IMG/VR virus record: IMGVR_UViG_2713896782_000022
Direction: 5' to 3' (one strand)
Length of the DNA: 5,959 bases
Source: a virus
Taxonomy: Duplodnaviria; Heunggongvirae; Uroviricota; Caudoviricetes
Shown one piece after another: positions 1,492 through 3,429 of the stretch. Position 1 is the stretch's first letter. The number at the start of each line of letters is the position of its first letter. Below the pieces are notes generated by a model. It was not told the DNA's origin and searched no databases. It was given only the letters and a program-made list of their open reading frames with translations. The translations under genes were made by a program, and so were the position numbers.

Positions 1492-3429
1492 TCAGCCGCC
1501 GGACGCACTGCCGTAGTTCACTCCGGTGATCACCGCCACCGCCGCAGTACGGCGACGACGCCAGTTGATCCAGCGCTCCGCACGGATGGCCACGCTGCCT
1601 GTCTGGAACATGGAAACCAGCTCCACCGGGGACGGCGTGGTACTGTCGCCGCCCGGCTCAGACTGCATTTCCAGTGATGCCTCGCGGGACATATCCACTG
1701 CCACGCCGCCGTCATCCGCCAGATAAATATCCGGGGCATTCACCAGCACCAGCTGGTCACCCACGTACTGGGAGACAATCACCGGCAGCCCCTGGAAGGA
1801 GCCACCCAGCAGGGTCATGTCCGGGTATTCCTTCTGACCCAGCGCATTTTTACGCATGGACAGTGCCAGGGCATTGGTGCTGGACATCAGCCAGACCGCA
1901 CCGGTGGGCTGCAGGTTTGCTGCCACAAACTGTCCAAACGCAGCCTCGGCATCCGCATCCGGGTTACCGGTTGATGCCGTGCCCTTCACATCATGGGTGA
2001 TGGACGCCGGGGAGACATCTGCCACTGCGGCTTTTTTCGGGTCCACAAAGTCTGTATCCAGACGCGCCACCACCGCTTCCGCCAGCGCATTACGGACCAG
2101 TGCATCAGCAGCCGGACTGGAAAAACGGATCAATTCTTCCGTCAGTACCGCAATGGCCGACACCTTCGCATGACTGAAGGTGATGGATTCAAAATCAAAC
2201 TTCGTCAGGGGTTTTGCCTTACCCTCACCCACCCAGCCGGCAGCACCGCCGGACACCTGGGCGTGCACACGGATATTGAATGGCACCTGACGAAGTGCAG
2301 GGATCCCGCCCTGACCAAATCGCCCGATAATGGTCTGCGGACGCAGGTAATCAATAAAGTCCTGTGCGTATTCCTGATATTCAGACAGGCTGCCTGCCCA
2401 CTGCGGATCCGTGGTGGTCCCCGCGCCCACTGCCGATTTCAGGACATGATGCAGACGACTGTCATCCGGATACTGACGACGGGCCACTTCCAGGGCTTCA
2501 GATCGGACGCCTTTAGCCGCAGCCAGCGATTTGGCAAAGCGGGCGAAGCCAATCCCCTTATCCAGTTTCTGCTCCACACGGATCACCGGCGCAGAAGCCA
2601 CCGCGGCCACATTCCCGTTACCGGCCTGTTTCACCGGCTGCGCCGTGGCGGCCTTACCGGCTTCCAGTTCACGCAGGCGCTTCAGGTGCGCATCCACCTG
2701 ACGGATTTCCGCTGCGGTGTTGTCGTAATGCTCTTCCTCCTCCACATCCAGCGTGCGCCCTTCCTCTGCGGCTTTGGTCATGACCTCCTCAAGGGAGGCT
2801 GCCAGCGCTGCACGCTTGTTTTCAAAACTTTTAATCTGTTCGCCAATATTCATTATGGTCTTTTCCTTATGAAAAACGGTTGTTGACTGTGCCGCAGCGC
2901 CGGCAGAAGATGCGATTTTCACCACCGGTTTCCGGTTGCCGGACGCGGCAGAAAACGGGCGGTCGTAAGATTTAATGGTCCGGATGGTGCATTCCGCATT
3001 CGCGGGCACGGTGACGGCAGACACCTCCATCAGTTCCCAGCGCAGAAAATGCAGTCCGCCTCCGTCCAGAAAGGTGTATTCATGGGGACGGAAGCCCACG
3101 GACAGCCCCCTGACCAGCCCGGTCTTAATGGCCGCCCAGACCTCATCCAGCCGGGCAGCCAGTTGCGACGGCATATCCGGTACGGGCTTCACCAGTGTTG
3201 CCGTGATTTCCAGCCCTTCGCTGACCCGGCGCACCGTACACTGCCCCACCGGGCGGGAATGGTCATGCTGCCAGAGAAACGGGATCGCACTGCCAAACTC
3301 CGCGCCCTCCGGCTCCAGGATGTCACCATCCCGATCCGGAGAAGGCGTTGACGCAATCCCGGTGATCACCCGTTCATCCTCACTGAAGGATTTCACCGTC
3401 AGCAGGGAACAGGCCCGTTTAAGAGTCAC
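1492..3429 (-). CDS. Prohead protease - scaffold (delta-like) - major capsid protein fusion, HK97 family (645 aa)
   Basis: One uninterrupted minus-strand ORF. GTG start at 3429-3427, preceded by AGGAGG (reverse complement of 3435-3440) with a 5-nt spacer. N-terminal ~160 aa resemble the HK97 prohead protease family (FLWQHDHSRPVG with candidate His; RGLSVGF with candidate Ser). Residues ~193-280 are a charged, coiled-coil-like segment (MNIGEQIKSFENKRAALAASLEEVMTKAAEEG...LKRLRELEAGKA) typical of a capsid delta/scaffold domain. The C-terminal ~360 aa resemble the HK97-fold capsid body (LRPQTIIGRFGQGGIPALRQVPF...; ...YLADDGGVAVDMSREASLEMQ...SVAIRAERWINW...). Stop TGA at 1494-1492, with TGATAA following shortly after. 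Confidence 0.9.
   Translation of the reverse strand: MTLKRACSLLTVKSFSEDERVITGIASTPSPDRDGDILEPEGAEFGSAIPFLWQHDHSRPVGQCTVRRVSEGLEITATLVKPVPDMPSQLAARLDEVWAAIKTGLVRGLSVGFRPHEYTFLDGGGLHFLRWELMEVSAVTVPANAECTIRTIKSYDRPFSAASGNRKPVVKIASSAGAAAQSTTVFHKEKTIMNIGEQIKSFENKRAALAASLEEVMTKAAEEGRTLDVEEEEHYDNTAAEIRQVDAHLKRLRELEAGKAATAQPVKQAGNGNVAAVASAPVIRVEQKLDKGIGFARFAKSLAAAKGVRSEALEVARRQYPDDSRLHHVLKSAVGAGTTTDPQWAGSLSEYQEYAQDFIDYLRPQTIIGRFGQGGIPALRQVPFNIRVHAQVSGGAAGWVGEGKAKPLTKFDFESITFSHAKVSAIAVLTEELIRFSSPAADALVRNALAEAVVARLDTDFVDPKKAAVADVSPASITHDVKGTASTGNPDADAEAAFGQFVAANLQPTGAVWLMSSTNALALSMRKNALGQKEYPDMTLLGGSFQGLPVIVSQYVGDQLVLVNAPDIYLADDGGVAVDMSREASLEMQSEPGGDSTTPSPVELVSMFQTGSVAIRAERWINWRRRRTAAVAVITGVNYGSASGG
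2851..2868 (-). promoter_or_regulatory. Internal in-frame ribosome-binding site plus ATG (Met193) inside the protease-capsid ORF
   Basis: On the minus strand ATAAGGAAAAGACCATA precedes ATG (2853-2851). AAGGA is the reverse complement of 2864-2868, about 10 nt upstream of the ATG. The downstream peptide MNIGEQIKSFENKRAALAA... resembles typical N-termini of HK97-family capsid proteins, which begin with the delta domain. Confidence 0.45.

Follow-up and report, generated by a model that had tools for sequence, protein, structure and literature searches.

A predicted nested capsid start within a conserved protease-scaffold-capsid gene of a lambdoid Escherichia coli prophage

In lambda C/Nu3, in UL26/UL26.5 of the herpesvirus HSV-1 and in gp17/gp17.5 of the haloarchaeal virus HFTV1, a nested protease/scaffold system that was recently profiled (bioRxiv 10.64898/2026.09.13.751334), the protease is carried on a long chain, and a commoner short chain starts in the same frame. 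Both chains have the same C-terminal part, by which the protease is brought into the procapsid, and the stoichiometry follows from the initiation ratio; the short product of HSV is made from a promoter of its own. What the two chains share in these nested systems is a scaffold, which is discarded afterwards, and a separate gene encodes the capsid protein. Here, we describe a stretch of 5,959 nucleotides (nt) from the IMG/VR virus record IMGVR_UViG_2713896782_000022 (the window), in which a protease, a scaffold-like segment and a major capsid protein are encoded in one open reading frame (ORF). An internal start at Met193 is predicted in this frame, so that the part shared by the two predicted chains would comprise the scaffold and the capsid protein itself.

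The head-maturation genes gp4 and gp5 of phage HK97 resemble this locus in their S78 protease with conserved His, Ser and Glu residues and in their capsid fold with an N-terminal helical delta domain, which the protease removes in HK97. In HK97, however, protease and capsid are two genes in the order portal-protease-capsid, and the protease is targeted non-covalently, whereas the genes are fused here, in the order TerS-TerL-fusion-small ORF-portal, with the portal gene downstream of the capsid.

A fusion precedent has been published for Salmonella phage Gifsy-2, whose capsid gene is termed 'tripartite' (Effantin et al. 2010, Virology 402:355, as cited in PMC12315714). Like the window, Gifsy-2 and relatives such as coliphage mEp043 are lambdoid and have a single ORF for a protease, a scaffold-like segment and an HK97-fold capsid. 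Whereas the protease of the window belongs to S78, that of Gifsy-2 is ClpP-like (S14/S49), and a Pfam scan of the window fusion gave no ClpP or S49 match; the Gifsy-2 capsid belongs to another sequence family, and its gene order differs, with the portal gene upstream. The window gene works like the Gifsy-2 gene, but its protease part is not homologous. Protease-capsid fusions have also been described in Arthrobacter phages of clusters AM, AU and AN, in Rhodococcus phage RRH1 and in Paracoccus prophages (PMC5513430, PMC6536676). These are single genes as well, mostly of independent origin and with other protease or capsid families, and neither of the two papers mentions an internal start. Our literature searches found no earlier report of an internal start or of nesting in protease-capsid fusions. 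The fusion is thus already known, and the putative nested capsid start appears to be a new form of the known nested-gene principle, not previously reported as far as we found.

Domain organization of the fusion gene

A preliminary description of this locus, made from the sequence alone, had read one frame of 645 amino acids (aa) at 3429..1492 on the minus strand, with a protease domain, a delta-like segment and an HK97-fold capsid body. Pfam profiles, an AlphaFold2 (AF2) model and Foldseek searches bear out this reading. The gene has the following features, in which confidence is given as the predicted local distance difference test (pLDDT) score:

1492..3429, minus strand: protease-capsid fusion ORF (645 codons, GTG start, TGA stop, 69.0 kDa)
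3435..3440, minus strand: Shine-Dalgarno (SD) sequence AGGAGG of the first start, 5 nt before the GTG at 3429..3427
2974..3378, minus strand: S78 (HK97-family) prohead protease domain, aa 18-152 (Pfam PF04586, AF2, invariant residues)
2854..2973, minus strand: disordered, indel-rich linker, aa 153-192 (pLDDT below 50, variable in the alignment)
2890..2905, minus strand: conserved mRNA hairpin, core GCCG-GCGCUG-CGGC at 2904..2891, in codons A174-A178, 37 nt 5' of ATG193
2864..2868, minus strand: internal SD sequence AAGGA, 10 nt before ATG193
2851..2853, minus strand: internal in-frame start codon ATG (Met193), with a predicted product of 453 aa and 48.2 kDa (scaffold plus capsid)
2632..2853, minus strand: delta/scaffold-like helical domain, aa 193-266 (AF2, pLDDT about 90)
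1495..2580, minus strand: capsid body, aa 284-645, with helices at 293-331 followed by the HK97 fold (PF05065, TIGR01554, Foldseek)

The linker at 2854..2973 (minus strand) contains both the RNA hairpin and the internal ribosome-binding site.

A Pfam profile search placed both halves above their cut-offs: Peptidase_S78 (PF04586) matched aa 48-152 with 34.7 bits (cut-off 21), and Phage_capsid (PF05065) matched aa 386-635 with 52.7 bits (cut-off 24.2). In NCBIfam, the HK97 major-capsid equivalog TIGR01554 scored 78.3 bits (cut-off 27.5), and the protease equivalog TIGR01543 scored 46.4 bits, which is under its cut-off of 59; the protease is therefore assigned to the S78 family (MEROPS S78, formerly U35) but not to the equivalog. 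A weak coiled-coil match in Pfam covers aa 189-210. The AF2 model, built from 45 diverse homologs, has a mean pLDDT of 79, rising to about 90 in the capsid body. It resolves a confident protease domain at aa 18-152 (pLDDT 85-92), a linker at aa 153-191 with pLDDT below 50, two long helices (195-223 and 229-262), a second disordered segment (267-283) and, after it, the HK97-fold body. Foldseek searches with this model matched capsid proteins of known structure at E-values from 1e-14 to 1e-9, including those of Bxb1 (2.5e-14), D3 (5e-11) and HK97 prohead I (2.4e-10).

In an alignment of 45 sequences, whose members are 38-78% identical to the window protein, residues H55, S110 and E135 are invariant. 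By analogy with HK97 gp4, we take these residues to be catalytic; as they are invariant, the protease looks intact.

At the end of the protease domain, the stretch GCCGCGTC(A/T)GG (about 2950..2938, minus strand; codons A160-A161-S162-G163, peptide AASG) is conserved at the nucleotide level. The codon window of aa 157-165 has the second-lowest synonymous diversity of the gene (0.263), and the stretch aligns across distant relatives. It may be a self-cleavage site of the protease or a further RNA element.

Start signals at Met193

The preliminary description had pointed to the ATG at 2853-2851 and to an AAGGA ribosome-binding site ahead of it; both stand in the sequence, the latter at 2868..2864, and comparative support for the predicted internal start is strong. 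Among 22 fused genomic homologs from alpha-, beta- and gamma-proteobacteria (32-78% identity), the position of Met193 is an ATG in 21, and the remaining homolog, that of Reyranella, has a GTG preceded by AAGGAGGG. An SD-like motif lies 6-10 nt upstream of this position in all 22. A further 36 fused loci from IMG/VR (44-59% identity) have an ATG in 33 cases and a GTG in 3; each of the 36 has an SD sequence with a dG of -4.3 kcal/mol or better (median -9.25), and many read GAGGAGGG or AAGGAGGG as SD. A start codon (ATG or GTG) together with an SD sequence is thus kept in 58/58 fused relatives that were read as DNA. In a comparison within 34 of the IMG/VR loci, no SD-like site anywhere in the ORF body is stronger than the internal SD in 16, and no other in-frame start codon has a better SD in 23.

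The same pattern is found at the protein level. In the 144 representatives of fused clusters, the 3-8 residues before the conserved Glu197 include a Met in 129, only a Val in 13 and only a Leu in 2, and SD-compatible dipeptides (KE, KG, EG and similar) precede this position in 57% of the representatives versus a background of 15%.

The linker around the internal SD is the most variable, indel-rich part of the protein. The window, Proteus and Candidimonas encode Lys-Glu with this motif (AAG GAA), and most Enterobacterales encode Lys-Gly (AAA GGA). The Gly codon of this linker is GGA in 17/17 sequences, compared with 9.5% of the Gly codons gene-wide, and it is the sole GGA in three of these genes. 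Because the SD is kept across two codon phases and by means of the rare GGA codon, the constraint acts on the nucleotides rather than on the amino acids. Based on 39 enterobacterial sequences, the internal SD and ATG form the stretch of third-lowest synonymous diversity of the gene. In a test of all columns, that of Met193 was the best for a start codon with an SD (21/21); its only near rival was Met580 (18/22), whose SD-like bases are explained by the invariant peptide DDGGVAVD that precedes it.

The AF2 model puts Met193 where the disordered linker gives way to the first delta helix. The pairing energy of its SD in the window gene is -6.2 kcal/mol, which is about the top 11% of codon positions. 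The opening energy of the region from -18 to +12 at Met193 is 5.0 kcal/mol, compared with a mean of 12.7 +/- 3.6 kcal/mol over the in-frame positions of the window. In seven of nine genes tested, the Met193 site was more open than the first start, and in 20 of 22 genes the gene-wide minimum of GC content in 45-nt segments is found no more than about 15 nt away. Few stretches of the mRNA are as accessible as this AT-rich site. As in lambda C/Nu3, an in-frame start with a ribosome-binding site is located at a domain boundary, and its signals are conserved beyond the needs of the protein. A long-range stem enclosing the internal ribosome-binding site (about 2906-2892 with 2815-2799) was predicted in the minimum free energy fold of the window (z score -2.2); it was dropped because it was not conserved in 17 homologs.

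Relatives in which protease and capsid are separate genes agree with this placement, as the Met193 site is their annotated capsid start codon. In Snodgrassella, the protease stop is followed by 23 nt that include GAGAGG and then by the capsid ATG (MTIEEQI...). The unfused Acidovorax capsid starts with a GTG (VNLQEQIKRL...), and in the unfused Moraxella phage Mcat6 the protease stop and the capsid start overlap as ATGA. One IMG/VR locus (L096; 3300037466_000351) has the same frame with a single TAA directly before the capsid ATG (1792..1797); since it differs by this in-frame stop only, the fused and unfused states are one mutation apart. The stand-alone capsids found in the search of cluster representatives begin at query residue 193 or 194. 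Phage D3 was considered as a fused relative and rejected, since it has separate genes. In the Arsenophonus endosymbiont of Aleurodicus floccissimus, the fusion homolog is split into several short ORFs and represents a decaying prophage pseudogene, which retains the capsid start MTIAEQIKSFE and the hairpin described below.

A ClpP-scaffold-capsid fusion like that of Gifsy-2 is also present in coliphage mEp043 (PV340537.1, 3013..4959), where it is mis-annotated as 'terminase protein'. Right after its protease domain, at the GC minimum of the gene, this single sequence has a candidate in-frame start, Met188, with GAGGA 10 nt upstream. As a lead from one sequence, it points to the same solution in a fusion of independent origin. 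The ClpP-type fusion P0261 had no relatives in IMG/VR and no full-length match among phage records.

A covarying hairpin in the linker

The mRNA hairpin upstream of the internal start lies within the codons of a linker motif that reads AGAAA in the window and AGATA, AGASA or PGASG in relatives. In the 39 enterobacterial sequences, the lowest synonymous diversity of the gene occurs at aa 172-180, with a value of 0.022 versus a mean of 0.517 (standard deviation 0.093). Covariation was tested on an ungapped alignment of 32 sequences with 500 shuffles. The paired positions of the hairpin were complementary in 89% of the alignment cells versus 72% in the shuffles, and 33 cells were changed on both sides versus 12.4 in the shuffles; neither value was reached in any of the 500. 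When the partners were shifted by 1-3 columns, pairing fell to 55% or less. The four core pairs of the hairpin have no unpaired cells.

One of these pairs joins the third bases of codon 1 and codon 4 and is therefore a pair between two wobble positions. Among 51 distinct sequences, it is C-G in 29, U-A in 20, U-G in one and G-C in one, with no mismatch, and the peptide AGASA is encoded both with GCC..UCG and with GCU..UCA. This pattern cannot be produced by protein constraints.

In 34 loci outside its training set, among them Pseudomonas phage IME307 and the unfused L096, a covariance model of the hairpin gave a single strong match each, on the coding strand and where the hairpin was expected; this result mainly reflects homology and does not prove the structure independently. 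The hairpin is found at the same place in fused and unfused relatives (loci L002-L111) and is followed by an A-rich single-stranded tract. It is short (4-6 bp), and in the window it is no more stable than in shuffled sequence (z score -0.1). No Rfam family matched the hairpin region. Two other roles were ruled out: a frameshift stimulator, as the hairpin lies without a conserved slippery heptamer upstream, and a Chi site, as GCTGGCGC differs from GCTGGTGG and the bases covary instead of being fixed. The hairpin may tune the internal start; that it acts in mRNA processing or stability, or provides this start with a standby site, is speculative.

Predicted products, alternatives and genomic setting

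Based on these signals, we consider it likely that a substantial part of the capsid protein arises by initiation at Met193. Ribosomes would start at two places on one late mRNA. The GTG at 3429 would give the 69.0-kDa protease-scaffold-capsid chain, and ATG193 (2853) would give the 48.2-kDa scaffold-capsid chain, probably as the majority product. Both chains would co-assemble through their identical capsid and delta parts, and the N-terminal protease of the long chain would be carried covalently into the procapsid, without a separate targeting signal; the delta domain of HK97 points into the procapsid, which is the basis of this analogy. How many proteases each shell receives would be set by the relative rates of initiation at the two starts, and after assembly the protease would remove itself and the delta domains, as in HK97. 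The preliminary description had predicted two products from one frame: the start signals it relied on are conserved in relatives, and from them we infer the production of both chains.

Several points weigh against initiation at Met193. In the window gene, the internal SD is only moderate (AAGGA, -6.2 kcal/mol), its 10-nt spacing is rather long, and an SD as good as that of Met193 precedes five other codons in frame that could serve as starts; it is the conservation across relatives, not any single sequence, that puts the signal beyond chance. The Met580 control shows that a Met with an SD-like motif can persist for protein reasons alone. Ribosomes elongating from the protease part could occlude the internal site. 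Rounds of fusion and fission could also renew signals that are not used in the fused state, an argument that is weakened by the enterobacterial clade (52-100% identical to the window protein), which is uniformly fused. Our rough estimate of the internal protein at a 1:1 ratio of protease to capsid is about 13 MDa, or 35-50% of a T=7 procapsid; as this ratio is physically possible, nesting is not forced by crowding. The related argument that 415 proteases cannot fit was left unused, as it is not decisive on this rough estimate. Finally, our literature search gave no ribosome-profiling, proteomic, N-terminal or gel data for the gene or its close relatives.

Some of these points enter into an alternative that we regard as unlikely, in which only the full-length 69-kDa chain is made, the protease of each subunit removes itself after assembly, and the internal ATG and SD are relics of an ancestral, separate capsid gene or mark an elongation pause for folding of the protease domain. 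It agrees with the uninterrupted ORF, the stronger SD of the first start (AGGAGG), the unremarkable internal SD of the single sequence and the feasible 1:1 packing, and relics are conceivable where fusion and fission are one mutation apart. Relics in the least constrained part of the protein would, however, be expected to decay, whereas the start codon and SD are retained in all 58 homologs read as DNA, down to 32% identity; the SD motif persists across codon phases and through the rare GGA, and the change from Met to Val is seen only as ATG to GTG. A pause site would require neither a correctly spaced start codon nor low mRNA structure, and the internal site lies in an AT-rich, accessible trough.

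We give a low probability to a second alternative, in which the capsid-only chain comes mainly from a shorter mRNA, produced as for UL26.5 by an internal promoter or by an endonuclease cut in the linker, with the hairpin protecting the processed end and the internal ribosome-binding site used chiefly there. The covarying hairpin 37 nt 5' of the internal start, the A-rich single-stranded tract that follows it and its presence also in unfused relatives would suit such processing, and differential mRNA stability would raise the ratio of capsid to protease. A pattern scan, however, found no sigma-70-like promoter on the coding strand, in lambdoid phages a single antiterminated transcript normally carries the late genes, and the short hairpin (4-6 bp) is, in the window, no more stable than shuffled sequence. 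A sigma-54 reading of TGGCGC..GCA was ruled out by inspection on its spacing. Because initiation at ATG193 would still be required, a shorter mRNA would refine rather than replace internal initiation at Met193.

For an assembly or sequencing artefact, with a stop lost or a frameshift at the protease/capsid junction, nothing speaks except that fusions of this kind are generally rare in textbook HK97-type modules. An artefact is refuted by identical or near-identical full-length ORFs in 1252/5426 complete E. coli genomes and in phages that were sequenced independently, dozens in number, and by fused homologs of 630-680 aa that fill more than 100 clusters at 50% identity. The many independent full-length copies thus exclude the sequence error at the junction that the preliminary description had allowed for.

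The fusion itself is real, widespread and already annotated, and is no discovery of this work. In the complete E. coli genomes, the 1938-nt gene was counted at a coverage of at least 80%, with up to seven copies per genome, and many Stx1, Stx2 and Stx2c phages carry the gene. It is annotated as 'putative major head protein/prohead protease' in BP-4795, YYZ-2008 and others, and as a 'major head protein/prohead protease' also in 2851 and 1717. Fused homologs with 73-78% identity are present in Salmonella, Enterobacter, Klebsiella and Serratia, and the clusters of full-length fusions were obtained in an exhaustive search of cluster representatives; in all, protease, scaffold-like segment and capsid lie in one uninterrupted frame in thousands of copies. 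Families whose names mark them as protease/capsid fusions exist in both PHROGs and NCBIfam (PHROG 4523 and 617; NF045541). PHROG 617 spans the window protein end to end (E-value 3e-261); against NF045541 (cut-off 525), the window protein reaches 54 bits. Inducible phages have closely related heads, which indicates that the module makes particles. The view that this fusion departs from the norm therefore stands against the HK97 textbook case but not within the protein family, which the fusion dominates and in which it is the rule.

On its minus strand, the window carries the beginning of a lambdoid prophage's late (head) module, and the fusion ORF is the head-maturation gene of a long-tailed lambdoid (Shiga toxin (Stx)-type) E. 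coli prophage. Its neighbours are as follows:

5714..5151, minus strand: small terminase TerS (ORF list, profile search)
5154..3493, minus strand: large terminase TerL (ORF list, profile search)
3441..3468, minus strand: terminator-like hairpin (GAACCGC-TGCG-GCGGTTT) with a T-run, between the terL stop and the fusion gene (pattern scan, fold)
1447..1226, minus strand: small ORF of 73 codons (PHROG 829, unknown function)
start at 1280, minus strand: portal gene, interrupted by 50 N

According to the preliminary description, a terminator ahead of the GTG start could shift the balance between the two products. Both starts, however, lie downstream of the terminator-like hairpin on one mRNA, and it therefore cannot do so. 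Terminator-like matches are not in excess in the window (4 versus 5.9 in shuffled sequence). A T-run followed by an SD is kept upstream of the fusion gene in enterobacterial homologs, and the first start in homologs is GGAGG with an ATG at the equivalent place.

The terS stop and the terL start share four nt (ATGA, 5151..5154), as expected for translational coupling. Directly 3' of the fusion-gene stop, there is a strong orphan SD, TAAGGAGGA (feature 1488..1457, minus strand), and a 9-bp GC hairpin (CGGGAGGCG-UGCG-CCUCCCG region, 1476..1457, minus strand) without a T-run lies 10 nt ahead of the ATG of the 73-codon ORF; this hairpin could be an mRNA stabiliser or could join a split ribosome-binding site. 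The 73-codon ORF had no match in Pfam or NCBIfam, and its final 55 nt overlap the portal start (1280) in a different frame. Snodgrassella and BP-4795 (there ORF57) likewise have a homologous small ORF after the capsid gene, and the order TerS-TerL-protease-capsid-small ORF-portal (5714..249 of the window, minus strand) also occurs in BP-4795, Pseudomonas phage IME307 and Moraxella phage Mcat6. The run of 50 N inside the portal gene (262-311) is a masked stretch or an assembly gap.

More tentatively, the nested major capsid gene may be family-wide, across Proteobacteria and their phages, and perhaps extend to the ClpP-type fusions (Gifsy-2, mEp043), with the hairpin as a dedicated regulator of the ratio of long to short chains, for example through RNA processing or stability or by serving as a ribosome standby site; the protease dose per virion would then be encoded in RNA instead of in a protein targeting signal. 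We regard this extended proposal as possible but rather doubtful. Many prophages carry protease-capsid fusions, the Shiga-toxin phages of E. coli O157 among them, and the question of how they avoid one protease per capsid subunit is not addressed in the literature as far as we found; an internal start would be a simple answer. Annotation pipelines call one 645-aa 'major capsid protein' where two products are likely, and constructs for procapsid or nanocage expression from this family should consider the internal start. The covarying hairpin in the coding region represents a new small RNA element. If the internal start is used as proposed, the nested-gene logic of lambda C/Nu3 and UL26/UL26.5 would extend to the capsid protein itself, and the easy interconversion of fused and unfused arrangements would be explained.

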